Origin: Escherichia coli
Lineage (GTDB): Bacteria > Pseudomonadota > Gammaproteobacteria > Enterobacterales > Enterobacteriaceae
Length of the DNA stretch: 64,000 bases
Assembly (NCBI RefSeq): GCF_003334315.1
Contig: NZ_QOWR01000024.1
Reading direction: 5' to 3' (one strand)
This document shows, one piece after another, positions 259-62,224 of the stretch. The notes under the pieces were generated by a model. That model made no database searches and was not told the origin of the DNA. It was given only the letters and a program-made list of their open reading frames with translations. A program made the translations under genes and the position numbers. Each line of letters opens with the position of its first letter. Within the stretch, counting starts at the first letter, position 1.

Positions 259-2958
259 ATGCGTAAATATCCTTTAAGTTTACTGAAGGATAAAAATATT
301 GTGACTTTTTTTGATTTCTGGGGAAAAACCCGACGCGGCGAGAAAGACGGGGGCGACGACTATCACCTTCTTTGCTGGCATTCGCTGGATGTAGCCGCGA
401 TGGGCTATTTAATGGTTAAAAGAAATTGCTTCGGGCTGGCTGATTATTTTCGTCAATTAGGGATTTCTGACAAGGAACAGGCGGCTCAATTTTTCGCCTG
501 GTTGCTGTGCTGGCACGATATTGGAAAATTTGCCCGCTCTTTTCAACAACTTTACCTGCCCCCTGAACTCAAGATTCAGGAAGGTGCCAGAAAAAATTAC
601 GAAAAAATCTCTCATTCAACGCTGGGCTACTGGTTGTGGAATCATTATTTAAGTGAATGTCAGGAGTTACTTCCTTCATCTTCGCTCTCTCCGCGCAAAC
701 TTAGGCGAGTGATAGAAATGTGGATGCCCGTGACGACAGGGCATCATGGTCGGCCCCCTGATCGTATGGATGAATTGGATAATTTTCTGCCTGAAGACAA
801 AGCTGCAGCACGAGATTTTCTCCTTGAAATCAAACCACTGTTTCCGCTCATAGAGATCCCCGCATTCTGGGATGATGATGAGGGCATTGAACTTATAAAA
901 CACCTTTCCTGGTATATCTCTGCAACCGTCGTGCTCGCAGACTGGACGGGTTCGTCAACGCGATTTTTTCCACGCGTCGCACACCCAATGGATATTAAAG
1001 GTTACTGGCAGAAAACTTTAATTCAGGCTCAAAACGCCTTAACCGTCTTTCCTCTAAAAGCAAAAGTCGCGCCTTTCAACGGAATTAATACGCTGTTTCC
1101 TTTTATTGAGAATCCGACACCGTTACAGCAAAAGGTGCTGGATCTGGATATCAGCCAGCAAGGACCGCAGTTATTTATTCTGGAAGATGTGACTGGCGCA
1201 GGTAAAACAGAAGCGGCGCTTATCCTGGCGCACAGGTTGATAGCTGCGGGGAAAGCTCAGGGGCTGTTTTTTGGTCTGCCAACAATGGCAACGGCCAATG
1301 CCATGTACGATCGGCTGGTCAAAACCTGGCTTGCTTTCTATTCGCCAGAATCCCGCCCCAGCCTGGTGCTGGCACATAGTGCCCGCACATTAATGGACCG
1401 CTTTAATGAATCACTCTGGTCTGGTGATTTAGTCGGGTCAGAAGAACCGGATGAACAAACGTTCAGTCAGGGATGTGCGGCCTGGTTTGCCGACAGTAAC
1501 AAGAAGGCGTTGCTGGCTGAAATTGGCGTCGGCACGCTGGATCAGGCGATGATGGCGGTGATGCCGTTCAAACATAATAATCTGCGGCTTCTGGGGCTGA
1601 GTAACAAAATCCTGCTGGCTGATGAGATCCACGCCTGTGACGCTTACATGTCGTGCATTCTTGAAGGGTTGATCGAGCGGCAGGCGCGTGGCGGAAACAG
1701 CGTTATTTTGCTTTCTGCCACGTTATCTCAACAGCAGCGCGACAAACTCGTCGCTGCCTTTGCGCGGGGTACAGAGGGCCAGCAAGAAGCTCCGTTCCTG
1801 GAAAAGGATGATTACCCCTGGCTGACGCATGTCACGAAATCCGATGTGAACTCACACCGGGTAGCGACGCGCAAAGACGTTGAGCGTAGCGTCAGCGTGG
1901 GTTGGCTTCATAGTGAACAAGAGTGTATTGCGCGTATCGAATCGGCGGTAAGTCAGGGGAAATGCATCGCCTGGATCCGGAATTCTGTCGATGACGCTAT
2001 TAAGGTTCATCGTCAGCTGCTTGCCCGCGGCGTCATTCCTGCTTCCAGCCTTTCACTTTTTCATAGCCGCTTTGCTTTTAGCGATCGCCAGCGAATTGAA
2101 ACGGAAACGCTGGCACGCTTTGGTAAATATTGTAGTTTACAGAGAGCGTCGCAAGTCATTGTTTGTACACAAGTAATTGAGCAAAGCGTGGATATTGACC
2201 TGGACGAAATGATCTCCGACCTGGCCCCTGTTGATTTGCTGATTCAGCGAGCAGGACGATTACAGCGGCATATCCGCGATATTAATGGTCAGTTAAAGCG
2301 TGACGGAAAGGACGAGCGTTCCCCCCCTGAATTGCTGATTCTGGCTCCCGTCTGGGACGACTCTCCTGGCGACGAATGGTTTGGCAGTGCCATGCGTAAC
2401 AGTGCATTTGTCTATCCCGATCATGGGCGAATCTGGCTGACGCAGCGTGTGCTGCGTGAGCAAGGTGCTATTCAGATGCCACACGCAGCCCGGCTTCTTA
2501 TTGAATCCGTCTACGGTGAGGACGTGGTAATGCCGGAAGGATTTGCCCGCAGCGAGCAGGAGCAAGTGGGCAAATATTACTGTGATCGCGCAATGGCTAA
2601 AAAGTTTGTGCTGAACTTCAGGCCCGGCTATGCCGCCAATATCAACGATTACCTCCCGGAAAAACTGTCGACACGTCTGGCTGAGGAGTCTGTTTCCCTG
2701 TGGCTGGCTACCTGTATTGACGGTGTGGTGAAGCCTTATGCCACCGGTGCTCACGCATGGGAAATGAGCGTTGTCAGAGTGCGCCGAAGCTGGTGGAAAA
2801 AACATCGGGATGAGTTTTCTTTACTGGAGGGAGAGGCGTTCAGGCTGTGGTGCATTGAACAGCGACAAGATCCGGAGATGGCAAACGTGATTTTAGTCAA
2901 CGATGACGAAAGTTGCGGGTATTCGGCTACGGAAGGATTGATTGGCAAGGTTGGTTGA
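259..2958 (+). CDS. cas3: Cas3 HD-nuclease/SF2 helicase, type I-E (899 aa)
   Basis: N-terminal HD motifs (HLLCWHSLDVAAMG, CWHDIGKF), helicase Walker A (TGAGKTEAA) and DEIH box (LLADEIHACD); lies directly upstream of the Cascade genes. Confidence 0.93.
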   Translation: MRKYPLSLLKDKNIVTFFDFWGKTRRGEKDGGDDYHLLCWHSLDVAAMGYLMVKRNCFGLADYFRQLGISDKEQAAQFFAWLLCWHDIGKFARSFQQLYLPPELKIQEGARKNYEKISHSTLGYWLWNHYLSECQELLPSSSLSPRKLRRVIEMWMPVTTGHHGRPPDRMDELDNFLPEDKAAARDFLLEIKPLFPLIEIPAFWDDDEGIELIKHLSWYISATVVLADWTGSSTRFFPRVAHPMDIKGYWQKTLIQAQNALTVFPLKAKVAPFNGINTLFPFIENPTPLQQKVLDLDISQQGPQLFILEDVTGAGKTEAALILAHRLIAAGKAQGLFFGLPTMATANAMYDRLVKTWLAFYSPESRPSLVLAHSARTLMDRFNESLWSGDLVGSEEPDEQTFSQGCAAWFADSNKKALLAEIGVGTLDQAMMAVMPFKHNNLRLLGLSNKILLADEIHACDAYMSCILEGLIERQARGGNSVILLSATLSQQQRDKLVAAFARGTEGQQEAPFLEKDDYPWLTHVTKSDVNSHRVATRKDVERSVSVGWLHSEQECIARIESAVSQGKCIAWIRNSVDDAIKVHRQLLARGVIPASSLSLFHSRFAFSDRQRIETETLARFGKYCSLQRASQVIVCTQVIEQSVDIDLDEMISDLAPVDLLIQRAGRLQRHIRDINGQLKRDGKDERSPPELLILAPVWDDSPGDEWFGSAMRNSAFVYPDHGRIWLTQRVLREQGAIQMPHAARLLIESVYGEDVVMPEGFARSEQEQVGKYYCDRAMAKKFVLNFRPGYAANINDYLPEKLSTRLAEESVSLWLATCIDGVVKPYATGAHAWEMSVVRVRRSWWKKHRDEFSLLEGEAFRLWCIEQRQDPEMANVILVNDDESCGYSATEGLIGKVG

Positions 2959-3055
2959 GATGTCTGCGACAGGACTCTCTGAATAGTTGATACACCGAAA
3001 AGGATGGAAAGATGGACAACCGACCTGGGATGGTCTTTTTTACGAGAGGATGCGT

Positions 3056-4618
3056 ATGAACTCGTTTTCACTTCTGACAACCCCGTGGTTGCCCGTTCGT
3101 TTTAAAGACGGAACGACAGGCAAACTGGCGCCAGTCGATCTGGCGGATGAAAATGTTGTCGATATTTCTGCGCCGCGGGCAGATCTCCAGGGTGCGGTAT
3201 GGCAGTTTTTGCTGGGGCTACTACAAACCAGCTTCGCGCCAAAAGATCATCGTCGTTGGGATGATATCTGGGAAGACGGACTGGAAGCTGAAAAGCTACG
3301 GGAAGCATTGCAGTCATTAGAACATGCTTTCCAGTTTGGGCCAGATTCCCCTTCATTTATGCAGGATTTCGAGGCGCTCACCGGAGATAAAGTTCCGGTC
3401 GCTTCGCTACTGCCTGAGATTCCCGGCGCTCAAACAACGAAGTTTAATAAAGACCACTTTATCAAGCGTGGTGTAACGGAATACCTGTGCCCACATTGTT
3501 CTGCGTTAGCTCTGTTCTCCCTACAGTTGAATGCGCCGTCAGGTGGCAAAGGCTACCGCACCGGTTTACGCGGCGGTGGGCCGATGACCACTCTGATTGA
3601 ATTACAGGAATATCAGGGTAATCAACAAACTCCCTTGTGGCGCAAACTGTGGATCAATGTCATGCCGCAGGATGAAGCCGATTTACCGCTACCCAAAAAA
3701 TTTGACGATCTGGTTTTCCCCTGGCTTGGCCCGACGCGCACCAGCGAACTGGCCGGTGCGGTGGTAACCGATGAGCAGGTCAATAAACTCCAGGCGTACT
3801 GGGGAATGCCTCGCCGTATTCGTATTGATTTTAATACCACGACAGTCGGCAACTGCGATATTTGCGGTGAGCAGAGCGACGCGCTCCTGAGCCTGATGAC
3901 GACCAAAAATTACGGTGCGAATTATGCCATGTGGCAGCATCCCTTAACGCCTTACCGTGTACCACTTAAAGAGGGTGGCGAGTTTTACTCCGTTAAACCA
4001 CAACCGGGCGGTTTAATCTGGCGTGACTGGTTAGGCCTTATCGAAACGGGTAAATCAGAAAACAATACGGAACTTCCCGCGCTGGTGGTGAAACTCTTCA
4101 ATGCCAGCAGTCTCAAGCAGGCAAAAGTGGGCCTGTGGGGATTTGGCTATGATTTCGACAACATGAAAGCGCGCTGTTGGTACGAACACCATTTCCCGCT
4201 GCTGCTCGATAAAAAAGAAGGTCAGATACCGAAGCTGCGGCTGGCTGCGCAAACAGCTTCACGGATTCTAAGTCTGTTACGGAGTGCATTGAAAGAAGCA
4301 TGGTTCTCCGATCCAAAAGGTGCAAGGGGTGATTTTAGTTTTGTGGATATCGACTTCTGGAACAAAACTCAGCATCGCTTTCTGAGGTTAGTGCGCCAAA
4401 TTGAAGAAGGTCAGGATGCGGATGAATTACTCAGCAAATGGAATAAGGAAATTTGGTTATTCGCACGTCAGGATTTTGACGAGCGTGTATTCACCAATCC
4501 TTATGAGCCCGTTGATCTGGAACGCGTCATGACCGCGCGCAAGAAATATTTTACAACATCGGCGGAGAAGCAAAGTGCTAAAGCCGCCAGGGAGAAAAAG
4601 CAGGAGGCTGCTGAATGA
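3056..4618 (+). CDS. cse1: Cse1 (CasA) Cascade large subunit, about 520 aa
   Basis: First gene after cas3 in a I-E operon; start placed at MNSFSLLTTPWLPVRF by analogy with the CasA N-terminus (MNLLIDNWIPVRP) and a GAGG RBS at 3046-3049. The ORF track begins earlier at 2987, and an ATG at 3050 is an alternative. Confidence 0.8.
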   Translation: MNSFSLLTTPWLPVRFKDGTTGKLAPVDLADENVVDISAPRADLQGAVWQFLLGLLQTSFAPKDHRRWDDIWEDGLEAEKLREALQSLEHAFQFGPDSPSFMQDFEALTGDKVPVASLLPEIPGAQTTKFNKDHFIKRGVTEYLCPHCSALALFSLQLNAPSGGKGYRTGLRGGGPMTTLIELQEYQGNQQTPLWRKLWINVMPQDEADLPLPKKFDDLVFPWLGPTRTSELAGAVVTDEQVNKLQAYWGMPRRIRIDFNTTTVGNCDICGEQSDALLSLMTTKNYGANYAMWQHPLTPYRVPLKEGGEFYSVKPQPGGLIWRDWLGLIETGKSENNTELPALVVKLFNASSLKQAKVGLWGFGYDFDNMKARCWYEHHFPLLLDKKEGQIPKLRLAAQTASRILSLLRSALKEAWFSDPKGARGDFSFVDIDFWNKTQHRFLRLVRQIEEGQDADELLSKWNKEIWLFARQDFDERVFTNPYEPVDLERVMTARKKYFTTSAEKQSAKAAREKKQEAAE

Positions 4619-36097: not shown

Positions 36098-36114
36098 AGC
36101 AATAATTGTGCCAG
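36098..36114 (-). promoter_or_regulatory. Sigma-54 (-24/-12) promoter for the hyp operon
   Basis: Reverse complement reads CTGGCAC-aatta-TTGCT (GG-N10-GC spacing), about 30-45 bp upstream of hypA. Confidence 0.7.
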
Positions 36115-36129
36115 TGTTGATTATCCCTG

Positions 36130-36180
36130 CGGTGAATAATGTCGATGATGTCGAAATGACACGTCGACACGGCGACGAAA
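36130..36180. promoter_or_regulatory. Candidate FhlA upstream activating sequences between the hyp and hyc promoters
   Basis: Repeated GTCGA / CGAAAT motifs (tgtcgaaatgacacgtcgacacggcgacgaaattc) midway between the two divergent sigma-54 promoters. Confidence 0.4.
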
Positions 36181-36224
36181 TTCATCTTTAGCTTAAAAAT
36201 CTCTTTAATAACAATAAATTAAAA

Positions 36225-36241
36225 GTTGGCACAAAAAATGC
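36225..36241 (+). promoter_or_regulatory. Sigma-54 (-24/-12) promoter for the hyc operon
   Basis: TTGGCAC-aaaaa-ATGCT with GG and GC at the canonical spacing, about 40 bp upstream of hycA. Confidence 0.7.
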
Positions 36242-36278
36242 TTAAAGCTGGCATCTCTGTTAAACGGGTAACCTGACA

Positions 36279-36740
36279 ATGACTATTTGGGAAATAAGCG
36301 AGAAAGCCGATTACATCGCACAGCGGCATCGTCGCCTACAGGACCAGTGGCACATCTACTGCAATTCGCTGGTTCAGGGGATCACGTTATCGAAAGCGCG
36401 CCTGCATCACGCCATGAGCTGCGCGCCGGACAAAGAACTCTGTTTCGTCCTTTTTGAACATTTTCGCATTTACGTCACCCTGGCGGATGGCTTTAACAGC
36501 CACACCATCGAGTATTACGTCGAAACAAAAGATGGCGAAGACAAACAGCGGATTGCGCAGGCGCAACTGAGCATTGACGGCATGATTGATGGCAAGGTCA
36601 ACATCCGCGATCGCGAACAGGTTCTGGAACACTATCTCGAAAAAATCGCTGGCGTTTACGACAGCTTATACACCGCTATTGAAAACAATGTGCCGGTGAA
36701 TTTAAGCCAACTGGTAAAGGGACAAAGCCCGGCAGCATGA
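36279..36740 (+). CDS. hycA: Formate hydrogenlyase regulatory protein HycA (153 aa)
   Basis: First gene after the divergent hyp/hyc promoter region. Confidence 0.9.
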   Translation: MTIWEISEKADYIAQRHRRLQDQWHIYCNSLVQGITLSKARLHHAMSCAPDKELCFVLFEHFRIYVTLADGFNSHTIEYYVETKDGEDKQRIAQAQLSIDGMIDGKVNIRDREQVLEHYLEKIAGVYDSLYTAIENNVPVNLSQLVKGQSPAA

Positions 36741-49136: not shown

Positions 49137-49288
49137 AAATCTTACAGAACTGTTCTGGCATCAAAGGAATTCCCGGAAATATTCGTAGAATACGGAGCGG
49201 GCGGTATCGCCGACCTGTGACTGCCGGATGCGACGCTGTCGTGTCCGGCAGGGCGGGTTACGCAATTCATGATGGCGGGAATAACTCA

Positions 49289-51541
49289 ATGGCAAAAAAC
49301 ACATCTTGCGGTGTCCAACTGCGTATTCGTGGCAAAGTGCAGGGCGTCGGTTTTCGTCCGTTTGTCTGGCAGCTGGCACAGCAATTAAATCTTCACGGCG
49401 ATGTCTGTAATGACGGCGATGGCGTAGAAGTCCGGCTGCGGGAAGACCCGGAAACGTTTCTTGTTCAATTGTATCAGCACTGCCCGCCGCTGGCGCGTAT
49501 TGATAGCGTCGAGCGTGAGCCGTTTATCTGGTCACAACTGCCCACCGAGTTCACTATACGCCAGAGCACAGGCGGCACCATGAATACGCAAATTGTTCCC
49601 GATGCCGCTACTTGCCCTGCTTGCCTTGCCGAAATGAATACCCCAGGCGAACGGCGTTATCGTTATCCGTTTATCAACTGTACCCACTGCGGCCCGCGTT
49701 TCACCATTATTCGCGCCATGCCTTACGACCGCCCGTTTACCGTGATGGCGGCGTTTCCGCTATGTCCGGCCTGTGACAAAGAGTACCGTGACCCGCTCGA
49801 TCGTCGCTTCCACGCCCAGCCGGTGGCCTGCCCGGAGTGTGGCCCGCATCTTGAATGGGTAAGTCATGGTGAACATGCGGAACAAGAGGCGGCATTACAG
49901 GCAGCTATCGCACAGTTAAAAATGGGCAAAATTGTCGCCATCAAAGGGATTGGCGGATTTCATCTTGCCTGCGATGCACGTAACAGTAACGCGGTGGCGA
50001 CACTTCGGGCGCGCAAACATCGCCCGGCGAAACCGCTGGCGGTCATGTTGCCAGTGGCTGACGGTTTACCAGACGCTGCGCGCCAGTTGCTTACCACGCC
50101 CGCCGCGCCGATTGTGCTGGTGGATAAAAAATACGTTCCTGAGCTTTGTGATGATATCGCCCCTGACCTTAACGAAGTCGGGGTAATGTTGCCTGCGAAC
50201 CCGCTCCAGCATTTGCTGTTACAGGAACTGCAATGCCCGCTGGTGATGACCTCCGGCAACCTGAGCGGTAAACCACCAGCTATCAGCAACGAACAGGCGC
50301 TGGCGGATTTGCAGGGCATTGCCGACGGATTTTTGATACATAACCGCGACATCGTGCAGCGGATGGATGATTCGGTGGTGCGCGAAAGCGGCGAAATGCT
50401 GCGCCGTTCGCGGGGGTATGTGCCGGATGCGCTGGCTTTGCCTCCGGGCTTTAAAAATGTTCCGCCTGTGCTGTGTCTCGGCGCGGATCTGAAAAATACC
50501 TTCTGCCTGGTGCGCGGTGAACAAGCGGTGTTGAGTCAGCATCTGGGCGATTTAAGTGACGATGGCATCCAGATGCAGTGGCGCGAAGCGTTACGCCTGA
50601 TGCAAAACATCTACGATTTCACCCCGCAATACGTTGTGCATGACGCACATCCGGGCTATGTCTCCAGCCAGTGGGCGCGCGAAATGAATCTGCCGACGCA
50701 AACGGTGCTGCATCATCATGCCCACGCAGCGGCGTGTCTGGCAGAGCATCAGTGGCCGCTGGATGGCGGTGATGTCATTGCTTTGACGCTCGACGGTATC
50801 GGTATGGGGGAGAATGGCGCTTTGTGGGGCGGCGAGTGCCTGCGGGTGAACTATCGCGAATGTGAGCACCTGGGCGGCTTGCCTGCAGTGGCGCTTGCTG
50901 GTGGCGATTTGGCGGCGAAGCAGCCGTGGCGAAACCTGCTGGCGCAGTGCCTGCGCTTTGTGCCGGAGTGGCAGAATTATCCCGAAACAGCGAGTGTGCA
51001 ACAGCAAAACTGGAGCGTGCTGGCGCGGGCCATTGAGCGTGGAATTAACGCGCCGCTGGCGTCATCGTGTGGGCGTTTTTTCGATGCAGTGGCGGCGGCA
51101 CTGGGCTGTGCGCCAGCCACGTTAAGTTATGAAGGTGAAGCGGCTTGTGCTCTGGAGGCGCTCGCAGCCTCATGCCACGGAGTGACGCATCCGGTGACAA
51201 TGCCGCGGGTGGACAATCAACTGGATCTCGCCACTTTCTGGCAGCAGTGGCTGAACTGGCAGGCACCGGTTAATCAACGCGCGTGGGCGTTTCATGATGC
51301 GCTGGCGCAGGGTTTTGCCGCGTTGATGCGTGAGCAGGCCACGATGCGTGGTATCACTACGCTGGTATTTAGCGGCGGGGTTATTCATAACCGTTTGCTG
51401 CGTGCACGTCTGGCGCATTATCTCGCTGATTTCACATTGCTCTTTCCACAGAGTTTACCGGCGGGTGATGGCGGTTTGTCTCTGGGGCAGGGGGTTATTG
51501 CTGCGGCGCGTTGGTTAGCGGGTGAAGTCCAGAACGGATAA
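49289..51541 (+). CDS. hypF: Carbamoyltransferase HypF (hydrogenase maturation, 750 aa)
   Basis: Acylphosphatase-like N-terminus ([18 protein letters not shown]), two Zn-finger CxxC pairs, YrdC-like and Kae1-like domains; start at MAKNTSCG (the track is extended 24 codons). Confidence 0.95.
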
Positions 51542-51668: not shown

Positions 51669-52802
51669 CTACATCGGCAATGTTTTCAACAATCCAAATG
51701 CCTCTTTCATCCGATCCTCACTGACCACAAAGGCGCGAAGCTGGTCAGCATCGTCAACGCCGCGCGCCACCATTCCCTGGCGTTCGGTATTAATTTGCCA
51801 GCGTAAATCCTGACGCTGGGTTTCGCCTGCCAGATGCAGCGGTAATTCCGGCGTTTTGATTTTCACCAGCATCGCCGGGAGTTTCAGCGGCGTGTTATTG
51901 CCGAGAAGATTTTTTGCCAGCACCATCGCGCTAAGTTGAATCGGCTGGAGGAACGGCAATACCTGACCGTTAATTTCCGCGCAATCGCCCAGCGCGTAAA
52001 TATCGGTATTACTGGTTTGCAGATAACTATCGACGCAAACGCCGCGATTAATCGTCAGCCCGGCGCGTCGTGCCAGGGCGGTTTCCGGGCGCAGTCCGGT
52101 GGCGGCAATTACCGCATCCACTTCGATATTGCGCTGGCGGTCCAGCGTTGCCTGAATGCCAGAATCCGTTTTTTCCAGCCCCTGTAACTGAGATTTCAAC
52201 AGCAGATGAACGCCCATCTCCGTCAACCGATGCTGCAAGCGGCTGCTTACTTCCGGTGGCATTAACGACGCCAGAATACTGGCAGCGTTGTCGATTAGCG
52301 TGACCGCTTTGCCTGCACGACAAAAATCCATCGCCAGTTCGCTACCAATCAAACCACCGCCAACAATCAACACGCGTCGGGCATCCCGCAGTTGCGTTTC
52401 ACAGGCGCGATACTCTTGCTGACTATTTAACGTCAGCATTAACTCACGCCCAGGCACAGGCGGGACAAAGGCACTGGCACCGGTTGCCAGTACTAGCTTG
52501 TCGTATTGCCACTGATTATTCTGGCTTTTCACCACACGGGCTTCGGCATCGATATCCGTCACCCAGGTTTGTGGAAACAGGTGCAGATTAAACTGCTCGG
52601 CAAATTCACCCGCCGTCTGGCGGGTAAGGTCATCGGCACGTTGCCCCTGACTGATAACATGGCTGATGTCAGGTTTGTTGTACTCATCCATGCTGTCGGC
52701 GGCAATCAAGGTTAATGGAATAGTGGCGTCCTGTTTGCGAATATTTTTCACCAGTTGTCGGGCGGCGAAGCCCGAACCAATGATCACAATGCCGTTGCTC
52801 AT
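51669..52802 (-). CDS. norW: NADH:flavorubredoxin reductase NorW (377 aa)
   Basis: FAD/NAD Rossmann motifs ([22 protein letters not shown]). Confidence 0.95.
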
Positions 52803-54238
52803 TTTGCCTCCGATGCCAGTTCGTCAAAGACGTCTTTGCCGAGGGAGCATTCCGGGCAGAGGAAGTTATCCGGAACTTCACTCCACGGCGTTCCTGGCGC
52901 AACGTCCTGCATTGGCTCGCCTTTTGCCGGATCGTAAATCCACTGGCAGACGCTGCACTGCATCCGTGGGCCGAGGTCAGCCGTCGTGGTGGCAGAGGTT
53001 TCTTCTTTAACCACCGAATTCACCGTGCTCTGCGGCAGCGGCGCGAGCGCCCACTGACGGGCGATTTCGCGACCGTGTTCACGGCATAACTCCAGAGCGT
53101 CCTGGTCTGGTCGCCATTTGGCTTTCAGGCTGAGCGACATTTCGAAACCCGCATCCTGCAGGCGCGTGGAAAGACGATCCACCGCACCGCCGCTCCAGCC
53201 GTGAGATCCGAAAGCACTGGCGCGTTTGTTACGGAAGCGTAATCCGGTCATCTCCTCCACCAGCCCGGCGATTTTCGGCATCATCACGTTATTCATCGTC
53301 GAAGTGCCGACCAGCACGCCTTTTGAGCGGAAGACATTGGTCAGGATTTCGTTTTTATCGCTTCGGGCGACGTTGAAAATTTTCACCGCCACGCGTGGGT
53401 CGGTTTCCGCAATTCCCTGGGCGATAGCGTCAGCCATCATGCGGGTGTTATTCGACATGGTGTCGTAGAAAATGGTGATTCTGTCTTCCTGATAATCAGC
53501 CGCCCATTTCAGGTACAGCTCGACAATTTGCGTCGGGTTATCGCGCCATACCACGCCGTGGGAAGTGGCTATCATATCGACTGGTAAGTTAAAGCCCAGG
53601 ATCTCGGTAATTTTCGGCGTTACCAGGCGGCTGAACGGCGTCAGGATATTGGCGTAGTAACGTTGGCACTGCTCGAAAAGCTCCGTCTGATCCACTTCAT
53701 CGTTGAACAGATGCTCGTCGCAGTAGTGCTGACCGAAAGCATCGTTACTGAACAGCACCGCGTCGCCTGTCAGGTAAGTCATCATGCTGTCCGGCCAGTG
53801 CAGCATTGGTGTTTCGACAAAAATGAGCTGTTTGCCGTTGCCGATATCCAGCGTGTCGCCAGTTTTCACCACATTAAAATTCCACTCCGGATGATGGTGA
53901 TGACCATTTATCGAGTCGATAGCGTTGGCAGTACAGTAGATCGGCGTATCGGGAATTTGTGCCATCAGTTCGGTCAGCGCCCCAGCGTGGTCCTCTTCTG
54001 CATGGTTAATCACGATGTAATCGATATCCGCCAGATCGATTTCATTACGCAGGTTCTGCACAAATTCGCGGCTGAATTTATGGTCGACGGTGTCGATCAG
54101 CACGTTTTTTTCTTCGCGGATGAGGTAGCTATTGTAGCTGCTGCCGCGCAGCGTTTTATATTCCGTGCCGTGAAAATCACGCACTTCCCAGTCACGTTGA
54201 CCAACCCAATGAATGTTATTTTTCACCACAATAGACAT
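52799..54238 (-). CDS. norV: Anaerobic nitric oxide reductase flavorubredoxin NorV (479 aa)
   Basis: Metallo-beta-lactamase-like diiron domain (HAEEDHAG), flavodoxin domain and C-terminal rubredoxin (CxxC...CPxC). Confidence 0.95.
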
Positions 54239-54284
54239 AGCAACCTCAATTTATTCAGCGTGTTCTAAAAAGATGTCTTGCTAA

Positions 54285-54302
54285 TTGCAGATTGCGTGCC
54301 AG
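54285..54302 (-). promoter_or_regulatory. Sigma-54 promoter for norVW
   Basis: Reverse complement reads CTGGCAC-gcaat-CTGCA (GG-N10-GC), about 45-65 bp upstream of the norV start. Confidence 0.7.
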
Positions 54303-54356
54303 TTTTTTATCTGATTGTTTTTACTCTATAAATAAAATTATGCCCATTAATGAGTA

Positions 54357-54412
54357 GTCAAAATGACTATCAATCAAATGGTCGATATGACAATATCTAT
54401 AGTCAAATTGAC
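54357..54412. promoter_or_regulatory. Three NorR binding sites (GT-N7-AC inverted repeats)
   Basis: GTCAAAATGAC (54357-54367), GTCGATATGAC (54381-54391), GTCAAATTGAC (54402-54412), the classic triple NorR enhancer immediately upstream of norR. Confidence 0.85.
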
Positions 54413-54424
54413 AGTGAGGCAAAG

Positions 54425-55939
54425 ATGAGTTTTTCCGTTGATGTGCTGGCGAATATCGCCATCGAATTGCAGCGTGGGATTGGTCATCAGGATCGTTTTC
54501 AGCGCCTGATCACCACGCTACGTCAGGTGCTGGAGTGCGATGCGTCTGCGTTGCTACGTTACGATTCGCGGCAGTTTATTCCGCTTGCCATCGACGGTCT
54601 GGCAAAGGATGTACTCGGTAGACGCTTTGCGCTGGAAGGGCATCCACGGCTGGAAGCGATTGCCCGCGCCGGGGATGTGGTGCGCTTTCCCGCAGACAGC
54701 GAATTGCCCGATCCCTATGACGGTTTGATTCCTGGGCAGGAGAGTCTGAAGGTTCACGCCTGCGTTGGTCTGCCATTGTTTGCCGGGCAAAACCTGATCG
54801 GCGCACTGACGCTCGACGGGATGCAGCCCGATCAGTTCGATGTTTTCAGCGACGAAGAGCTACGGCTGATTGCTGCGCTGGCGGCGGGAGCGTTAAGCAA
54901 TGCGTTGCTGATTGAACAACTGGAAAGCCAGAATATGCTGCCAGGCGATGCCACGCCGTTTGAAGCGGTGAAACAGACGCAGATGATTGGCTTGTCCCCT
55001 GGCATGACGCAACTGAAAAAAGAGATTGAGATTGTGGCGGCGTCCGATCTCAACGTCCTGATCAGCGGTGAGACTGGAACCGGTAAGGAGCTAGTGGCGA
55101 AAGCGATTCATGAAGCCTCGCCACGGGCGGTGAATCCGCTGGTCTATCTCAACTGTGCTGCACTGCCGGAAAGTGTGGCGGAAAGTGAGTTGTTCGGGCA
55201 TGTGAAAGGAGCGTTTACTGGCGCTATCAGTAATCGCAGCGGGAAGTTTGAAATGGCGGATAACGGCACGCTGTTTCTGGATGAGATCGGCGAGTTGTCG
55301 TTGGCATTGCAGGCCAAGCTGCTGAGGGTGTTGCAGTATGGCGATATTCAGCGCGTTGGCGATGACCGTTGTTTGCGGGTCGATGTGCGCGTGCTGGCGG
55401 CGACTAACCGCGATTTACGCGAAGAGGTGCTGGCAGGGCGATTCCGCGCCGATTTGTTTCATCGCCTGAGCGTGTTTCCACTTTCGGTGCCGCCGCTGCG
55501 TGAGCGGGGCGATGATGTCATTCTGCTGGCGGGGTATTTCTGCGAGCAGTGTCGTTTGCGGCAGGGGCTCTCCCGCGTGGTATTAAGTGCCGGAGCGCGA
55601 AATTTACTGCAACACTACAGTTTTCCGGGAAACGTGCGCGAACTGGAACATGCTATTCATCGGGCGGTAGTTCTGGCGAGAGCCACCCGCAGCGGCGATG
55701 AAGTGATTCTTGAGGCGCAACATTTTGCTTTTCCTGAGGTGACGTTGCCGCCGCCAGAAGTGGCGGCGGTGCCCGTTGTTAAGCAAAACCTGCGTGAAGC
55801 GACAGAAGCGTTCCAGCGTGAAACTATTCGTCAGGCACTGGCACAAAATCATCACAACTGGGCTGCCTGCGCGCGGATGCTGGAAACCGACGTCGCCAAC
55901 CTGCATCGGCTGGCGAAACGTCTGGGATTGAAGGATTAA
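54425..55939 (+). CDS. norR: NO-responsive sigma-54 activator NorR (504 aa)
   Basis: GAF domain, AAA+ sigma-54 interaction domain ([14 protein letters not shown]) and HTH; start at [15 protein letters not shown] (the track ORF is extended across the enhancer). Confidence 0.95.
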
Positions 55940-61138: not shown

Positions 61139-62224
61139 ATGTTCAAGCGTCGTTATGTAACATTGCTTCCCCTTTTTGTGTTGCTTGCCGCCTGTAGCAG
61201 CAAGCCAAAACCTACTGAGACTGAAACGACCACCGGAACGCCGTCTGGCGGCTTCCTGCTTGAGCCGCAGCACAATGTGATGCAGATGGGCGGCGATTTC
61301 GCTAATAACCCGAATGCCCAGCAGTTCATCGACAAAATGGTGAACAAACACGGTTTCGATCGTCAGCAGTTGCAGGAAATTCTCTCCCAGGCGAAGCGTC
61401 TGGATTCGGTACTGCGGCTGATGGATAACCAGGCACCAACCACATCGGTGAAACCGCCATCAGGTCCGAACGGCGCATGGCTGCGTTATCGCAAAAAATT
61501 TATTACGCCGGACAACGTGCAGAACGGTGTGGTTTTCTGGAATCAGTATGAAGATGCGTTGAATCGCGCGTGGCAGGTGTATGGTGTACCGCCGGAAATT
61601 ATCGTCGGGATTATCGGCGTTGAAACCCGCTGGGGGCGCGTGATGGGGAAAACTCGCATCCTCGATGCGCTGGCAACGCTGTCATTTAACTACCCACGCC
61701 GCGCGGAGTATTTCTCTGGCGAGCTGGAAACCTTCCTGTTGATGGCGCGCGACGAGCAGGACGATCCGCTCAATCTGAAAGGTTCCTTTGCCGGGGCGAT
61801 GGGCTACGGACAGTTTATGCCGTCGTCTTACAAACAATATGCGGTAGATTTCAGCGGCGACGGGCATATCAACCTGTGGGATCCGGTTGATGCGATCGGT
61901 AGCGTGGCGAACTATTTCAAAGCACACGGCTGGGTGAAAGGCGATCAGGTCGCGGTAATGGCAAACGGTCAGGCTCCAGGCTTGCCAAATGGCTTCAAAA
62001 CCAGGTACAGCATTTCGCAGCTTGCCGCGGCAGGTTTAACGCCACAGCAGCCGCTGGGCAACCATCAACAAGCCAGCCTGCTGCGTCTGGATGTCGGTAC
62101 CGGTTACCAGTACTGGTACGGTCTGCCGAACTTCTACACCATCACCCGTTATAACCACAGCACCCATTACGCAATGGCGGTCTGGCAGTTAGGACAAGCC
62201 GTGGCGCTGGCGCGCGTACAGTAA
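61139..62224 (+). CDS. mltB: Membrane-bound lytic murein transglycosylase B MltB (361 aa)
   Basis: Lipobox LLAACSS after the signal peptide; start at MFKRRYVTLLPLFVLLAACSS (the track ORF is extended 35 codons). Confidence 0.93.
   Translation: MFKRRYVTLLPLFVLLAACSSKPKPTETETTTGTPSGGFLLEPQHNVMQMGGDFANNPNAQQFIDKMVNKHGFDRQQLQEILSQAKRLDSVLRLMDNQAPTTSVKPPSGPNGAWLRYRKKFITPDNVQNGVVFWNQYEDALNRAWQVYGVPPEIIVGIIGVETRWGRVMGKTRILDALATLSFNYPRRAEYFSGELETFLLMARDEQDDPLNLKGSFAGAMGYGQFMPSSYKQYAVDFSGDGHINLWDPVDAIGSVANYFKAHGWVKGDQVAVMANGQAPGLPNGFKTRYSISQLAAAGLTPQQPLGNHQQASLLRLDVGTGYQYWYGLPNFYTITRYNHSTHYAMAVWQLGQAVALARVQ

Follow-up and report, generated by a model that had tools for sequence, protein, structure and literature searches.

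Three copies of a GT-N7-AC motif lie between the divergent genes norV and norR in the 64,000-nt stretch of Escherichia coli DNA analysed here (the window), and the longest open reading frame that a program draws for norR runs straight through them. The locus raises the question of what these boxes do and where norR begins. In the RefSeq annotation of an identical E. coli record, with which that of K-12 MG1655 agrees, norW (51669-52802, minus strand) encodes the 377-aa NADH:flavorubredoxin reductase and is the second gene of the regulated operon, norV (52799-54238, minus strand) encodes the 479-aa anaerobic NO reductase flavorubredoxin and is the first gene behind the sigma-54 promoter, and norR (54425-55939, plus strand) encodes a 504-aa NO-sensing sigma-54 enhancer-binding protein. 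Each product scored far over the cut-off of its NCBIfam equivalog: NorW with 683.9 bits for NF003437 (cut-off 392), NorV with 1046.6 bits for NF003954 (cut-off 711; residues 1-479 of 479 covered), and NorR with 821.9 bits for NF003451 (cut-off 476). NorR has a GAF domain, an AAA+ domain with GAFTGA at residues 262-267, and a C-terminal HTH (Pfam matches to GAF, Sigma54_activat, AAA_lid_14, and, weakly, HTH_8). The locus thus shows what marks a norVW-type system, a divergent adjoining norR of GAF–AAA+(GAFTGA)–HTH layout and target genes for an NO-detoxifying enzyme.

The norV–norR spacer is 186 bp long (54239-54424) and 100% identical to that of K-12 MG1655, an identity that extends over window positions 54229-54434. 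Every one of the 5426 complete E. coli genomes matched a 501-bp query around it, and the genes at the match are annotated norR and norV. Strain background of the flanks aside, we found no difference from the K-12 locus, which has the same sequence, the same three sites, and the same genes on both sides. The feature is almost certainly the E. coli control region shared by the divergent norR and norVW, the same as in K-12, and nothing we found contradicts this explanation. That region is already known in full detail, with its sites 1-3, the sigma-54 promoter PnorV, and IHF (Tucker et al., 2004; Tucker et al., 2010; Gardner et al., 2003; Justino et al., 2005). We take NorR binding, the need for all three sites, the role of IHF, and NO sensing from the literature; our analysis established where the elements lie, that the boxes are the published sites, how the region is conserved, and at which codon norR starts, and it is a matter of annotation hygiene and little more for a textbook sigma-54 enhancer system and popular NO biosensor part. 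No RNA family was returned by Rfam for 54100-54550 (E ≤ 1), and a search of the control region for a terminator-like site found none.

The original prediction had placed three GT-N7-AC boxes within 54357-54412, just upstream of norR and 55-125 bp from a sigma-54 promoter. Pattern matching located them exactly there: site 1 (GTCAAAATGAC) at 54357-54367, site 2 (GTCGATATGAC) at 54381-54391, and site 3 (GTCAAATTGAC) at 54402-54412, centred at about -87, -111, and -132, respectively. The distance from the start of site 1 to the TGGCAC of the promoter is 56 nt and that from the end of site 3 to the far end of the promoter is 126 nt, close to the predicted range; on the other side, 12 nt separate site 3 from the norR ATG. 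All three boxes also fit a longer palindrome, GTC-N5-GAC, and site 1 extends to a full palindrome, TAGTCA-AAA-TGACTA, at 54355-54369.

In a previous report, NorR sites 1, 2, and 3 were each mutated from GT-(N7)-AC to GG-(N7)-CC (Tucker et al., 2010; PMC2831303). The Site1, Site2, and Site3 primers of that report are identical to window positions 54349-54376, 54372-54397, and 54395-54424, save for the engineered GT-to-GG and AC-to-CC changes, so the boxes are exactly the published NorR enhancer sites 1-3. Each site proved essential for nitrite-induced expression of norV-lacZ, with the GG/CC mutation abolishing induction, and both the enhancer-stimulated ATPase activity of NorRΔGAF and the formation of open complexes required each of them; NorR protected G residues from -137 to -84 and formed rings on a 266-bp fragment (PMC2831303). 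A genomic SELEX (gSELEX) experiment with NorR gave a single strong peak in the norR/norV spacer (Shimada et al.). A repeat finder related sites 1 and 3 as 14-nt inverted and as 24-nt direct repeats, the latter with 45-bp spacing; it also listed a 9-nt repeat pair (54309-17 and 54371-79), which we judged to be chance.

How much weight the motifs can bear by themselves is a separate matter. GT-N7-AC occurs 190 times in the 64-kb window (191 ± 12 expected), three copies fall within 46 nt in 221 of 300 dinucleotide shuffles, and TGGCAC-N5-TTGCA with one mismatch is found three times where 2.4 are expected. These chance-level frequencies of both patterns, with minimal-core triple clusters in 74% of shuffles, are what one would cite for the view that neither the boxes nor the promoter-like element has a function and that they match by chance. 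The minimal GT-N7-AC and sigma-54 patterns are indeed not significant alone, and the signal is the longer palindrome: GTC-N5-GAC occurs 15 times in 64 kb, and a triple within 46 nt was absent from all 300 shuffles, where the maximum was two, reached in 16 of 300. The chance view also has to face positions kept across about 30 genera and invariant in the E. coli alleles examined, and it is refuted by published mutagenesis and footprinting on exactly these bases; we consider it to have practically no probability left. Cross-species conservation and published experiments thus mark the boxes as functional. As a lesson for prediction, the minimal GT-N7-AC consensus is of no value by itself; it has to be read together with the longer palindrome, the spacing, and the genomic context. 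A second GT-N7-AC cluster at 62097-62158 (starting at 62097, 62103, 62121, and 62148), none of whose members is of the GTC...GAC form, is presumably chance.

The conservation was evaluated with a NorR query against one genome per species, which gave 80 loci from about 30 enterobacterial genera (78-99% protein identity). The boxes are found at -68, -44, and -23 from the norR ATG (sites 1, 2, and 3) in nearly all 80 loci, and their start-to-start spacing of 24+21 bp is kept in 76 of 79 distinct enterobacterial sequences. The TGGCA of the -24 element is present in every one of the 79 distinct upstream regions (three have TGGCAT), and TGGCAC lies 54-57 nt from site 1 in 74 of 76. The -12 element is more varied: of the 79 distinct upstream sequences, 29 (including those of Escherichia, Citrobacter, and Salmonella) have CTGCA, and 40 (including those of Enterobacter, Klebsiella, and Kosakonia) have TTGAT, in which GA replaces the canonical GC at -13/-12. 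Within E. coli, the seven alleles sampled and aligned had substitutions only in the promoter-to-site-1 and site-1/site-2 spacers, leaving both the boxes and the promoter invariant.

One of the 5426 complete E. coli genomes departs from this layout. The blood-culture isolate AF3 (NZ_OZ547117.1; 1501-1641 of the locus) carries a 45-bp deletion equivalent to window positions 54368-54412, which leaves one NorR box directly before the norR ribosome-binding site, with norR and norV annotated as intact. The deletion looks as if the direct repeats at sites 1 and 3 had recombined. Given the published three-site requirement, AF3 should be unable to induce norVW. Among plasmids, a 32.8-kb E. coli plasmid (NZ_CP146656.1) encodes at 1806-3245 a homologue of NorR with 79% identity, which aligns only from residue 25 onwards. 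The norR–norV spacer itself has a match in one E. coli plasmid record. Of the PLSDB "plasmids" with NorR matches, several have a length of 4-5 Mb and are evidently chromosomes.

A fourth GTC-N5-GAC box, GTCACGTTGAC, lies inside norV at 54191-54201, about +75 to +85 from the inferred transcript start. It codes for the conserved residues G-Q-R-D and recurs at around -234 to -238 from the norR ATG in about 25 of the 80 loci. Read against the coding sequence, it is probably a by-product of coding constraint.

The sigma-54 promoter of norVW was found on the minus strand at 54286-54301 as a pattern match with one mismatch, TGGCAC-gcaat-CTGCA (TGGCACGCAATCTGCA, read 54301→54286). Its -24 GG is at 54300/54299 and its -12 GC at 54288/54287, and the -12 element is CTGCA, not TTGCA. 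The original prediction had named CTGGCAC-gcaat-CTGCA, which lies at 54302→54286, as this promoter, in agreement with the position, with the numbering of the footprint, and with the peak that RpoN gave by gSELEX in the norR/norV spacer. In Salmonella, norV has been found to be RpoN-dependent. The norV ribosome-binding site, read from the sequence, is GAGG at 54244-54247 (minus strand), 5 nt before the norV ATG, and the AACCTC beside the norV start is kept across genera.

For the norV transcript start, we compared candidates at 54274, 54275, and 54276 by hand with the sequence and with the ends of the published footprint. The two ends, -84 and -137, both fall on G:C pairs (54359 and 54412) with 54275 and with neither of the others, and 54275 also places GC at -13/-12 and GG at -25/-24. 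On these grounds, and from secondary statements in the literature, we infer +1 at 54275, a C on the norV strand that would give a 36-nt leader; converted to K-12 coordinates, this is position 2832439. A transcript from this position begins with CA, which fits the CTP plus ATP of published open-complex assays. With +1 at 54275, protection from -137 to -84 corresponds to window positions 54412 to 54359, and the comparison with the published NorR footprint that had been proposed along with the boxes comes out as a match.

IHF binds between the norV start site and the NorR enhancers (PMC2831303). No match to the strict IHF consensus was found in the norR–norV spacer, and the best candidate is AAACAATCAGATA at 54308-54320 (minus strand, about -33 to -45), which has two mismatches to WATCAANNNNTTR and a conserved T-tract before it. 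Of 76 orthologous sequences, 68 have their best IHF match at the same offset, 6-7 nt beyond TGGCAC on the minus strand, and in 66 the best match has 0-1 mismatches, versus two in the window allele. On this basis 54308-54320 is proposed as a candidate IHF site. The K-12-type allele is off the enterobacterial norm both here and at the -12 element, and one might speculate that lineage-specific tuning of looping or of the closed complex explains the strict three-site dependence; we think this improbable. Natural material bearing on the tuning idea exists in the EC556 and AF3 alleles, both of which have TTGAT instead of TTGTT in the IHF-like site, which restores one consensus position; AF3 in addition has its 45-bp deletion.

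The mechanism described in the literature fits the rigid site geometry measured here. Three NorR dimers would sit on the three inverted repeats in tandem, the centres of which lie about 87, 111, and 132 bp before the norV start, and NorR bound to all three sites would form a DNA-stabilised hexameric AAA+ ring poised at the promoter, where sigma-54 RNA polymerase would wait in a closed complex on TGGCAC-N5-CTGCA. By bending the AT-rich DNA between the sites and the promoter, IHF would allow the ring to reach the polymerase. NO bound at the GAF iron centre would release the AAA+ domain, and ATP hydrolysis would then open the promoter for transcription of norVW, which encodes the flavorubredoxin NO reductase and its reductase. 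The same three sites directly precede norR, which is translated from the ATG at 54425 behind GAGG.

That last point depends on the start codon of norR. The mechanical open reading frame spans 54350-55939 and encodes 529 aa, since ATGs at 54350 and 54425 share one frame; the 25 extra codons noted in the original prediction (54350-54424, plus strand) hold all three enhancer sites and are called by the ORF tool only, being unannotated in the RefSeq records examined. The prediction had favoured 54425 on the ground that NorR sites are incompatible with a coding extension. We find this argument weak, because a binding site may overlap a reading frame, and it does not decide the start. The conclusion itself held up on other evidence, drawn from annotation, the ribosome-binding site, the conserved ATG, stops in the extension, the profile alignment, and residue numbering, as set out below.

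A ribosome-binding site read from the sequence, GAGG at 54416-54419 (plus strand), stands 5 nt before the ATG at 54425, and GAGG or GGAG is found at this position in almost all 80 orthologous loci. The sequence before the ATG at 54350 (AAAATTATGCCCATTA) has no Shine-Dalgarno and no purine run comparable to GAGG. An ATG aligned to 54425 is present in 80 of 80 loci, with a conserved N-terminus MSFSV(D/E)VLA, and RefSeq/PGAP uses 54425 in every record examined. In the alignment with the NorR equivalog, profile position 3 falls on residue 2 of the 504-aa protein, so that the profile opens at the Met of 54425, and no Pfam domain touches residues 1-46 of the 529-aa form, hence none its extra 25. Residues discussed in the literature (R75, R81, D96, D99, C113, D131, G266 in GAFTGA, and Q304) come out right only in the 504-aa numbering.

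Translation from 54350, which would put the three boxes within the coding sequence of a 529-aa NorR, could appeal to the open frame in the window and in the most frequent E. coli allele, that of the K-12 type (the window's 74-nt allele, 3732 of 5426 record matches), and to 16 of 78 other species in which the frame is likewise open and a start codon stands at -75. The frame of the 75-nt extension is, however, interrupted by a stop in 35 of 78 species, and in E. coli itself the change C54375A turns TCA into TAA at 54374-54376 in 615 of 5426 record matches, counted over complete E. coli genomes as exact matches to the TAA-bearing 74-nt allele; these include the type strain ATCC 11775, and norR is annotated as intact. 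The ATG at 54350 becomes GTG or ATT in close relatives, and conservation within the extension tracks the palindromic half-sites and not codons. Together with the lack of a Shine-Dalgarno, the profile, the published numbering, and the PGAP start, these observations have effectively refuted a start at 54350 already, and we regard it as very improbable. Translation of norR starts at 54425, and the 529-aa frame is merely the longest mechanical one; the useful outcome is that it is wrong and that the 504-aa NorR from 54425 is right.

The codon at 54374-54376, in the spacer between sites 1 and 2, is polymorphic in a further way, with TCA in the window and K-12, TCC in one O157:H7 strain, and TAA elsewhere. 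At 30 nt upstream of the norR start (equivalent to 54395-54397, between sites 2 and 3), E. coli has ATC, whereas an in-frame ATG is present in most species outside Escherichia. This ATG has no ribosome-binding site, is probably part of a conserved ATATG spacer motif, and could mislead gene callers. In the same window, hypF (49217-51541) shows the same kind of 5' over-extension, with a mechanical frame of 774 aa from GTG against 2253 nt and 750 aa in RefSeq.

With the start at 54425 and site 3 ending only 12 nt before it, the NorR sites must overlap the norR promoter or leader, and a second role in autoregulation is therefore plausible. A simple sigma-70 scan for the norR promoter found nothing on the plus strand; a weak minus-strand match (54393→54366) was within shuffle expectation and was dismissed. 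Hutchings and colleagues are said to have reported, in 2002, a modest negative autoregulation of norR. One may go further and propose that the boxes are mainly operators for NorR self-repression, with norVW activation secondary. Besides the overlap with the norR promoter or leader, this proposal can point to the K-12 annotation, which terms NorR a "dual regulator", to the statement that NorR regulates both norR and norVW (Shimada et al.), and to the negative autoregulation via a single site proposed for the paralogue NorR2 (Rodionov et al.). Mutation of any one site, however, abolishes norV induction, ATPase stimulation, and open-complex formation, so activation is a primary role that has been demonstrated. 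A spacing as rigid as 24+21 and a fixed promoter distance (74-76 of 76-79 sequences) also suit a scaffold for a hexamer and not a simple operator. We thus hold the proposal to be possible but on the whole doubtful, and self-repression is best seen as a function additional to norVW activation and not as an alternative to it.

Beyond the enterobacteria, NorR homologues 51-65% identical on large replicons of Aeromonas, Photobacterium, and Ralstonia also have three tandem GT-N7-AC boxes. A divergent GG-N10-GC promoter was called by the scan in Aeromonas and Photobacterium, and a TGGCAT-like motif was read by eye in Ralstonia. These boxes agree with published comparative work, in which Ralstonia eutropha norR–norAB and other proteobacterial NorR regulons have the same three tandem GT-N7-AC repeats upstream of a sigma-54 promoter and a divergent norR. 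Regulons described elsewhere include hmp in Pseudomonas and Vibrio cholerae and norVW in Salmonella, Erwinia, and Vibrio, and the GTC...GAC half-sites are typical of the enterobacterial or NorR1 type (Rodionov et al.). The other systems differ from norR–norVW in their targets (norAB, hmp) and in the flanks of the half-sites, the spacing, and the promoter distance. On the Pantoea agglomerans plasmid pCFSAN047154_1 (453-900 of the locus), a DUF1971 gene lies between norR and norV, a TGGCAT-N5-ATGC promoter-like element can be read by eye, and the 450 nt scanned upstream of norR have no E. coli-type three-box cluster; we set this locus aside as of no use for the comparison.

Among other activators, NtrC at the glnA enhancer and TyrR at its three boxes resemble NorR as AAA+ activators that are tethered upstream of a sigma-54 promoter and oligomerise on multiple sites. 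TyrR, like NorR, places three dimers on three boxes to form a hexamer. For NtrC, in contrast, two sites suffice and control is exerted via oligomerisation after phosphorylation, whereas NorR strictly requires the full set of three sites and is under control when it is already assembled on the DNA. Also comparable is the FhlA-dependent hyc/hyp system in the same window (about 36098-36242), which likewise has a GAF–AAA+–HTH activator and divergent sigma-54 promoters but differs in the identity of the activator, in its formate signal, and in its site arrangement. In the hypA/hycA spacer, the promoters are TGGCACAATTATTGCT at 36098-36113 (minus strand, to hypA) and TGGCACAAAAAATGCT at 36227-36242 (plus strand, to hycA). 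Between them, at 36150-36160, GTCGAAATGAC has the NorR-box pattern, is one base off NorR site 2, and is presumably part of the upstream activating sequence of FhlA. Within hycA there is one more sigma-54-like match, TGGCACATCTACTGCA, at 36348-36363 (plus strand).
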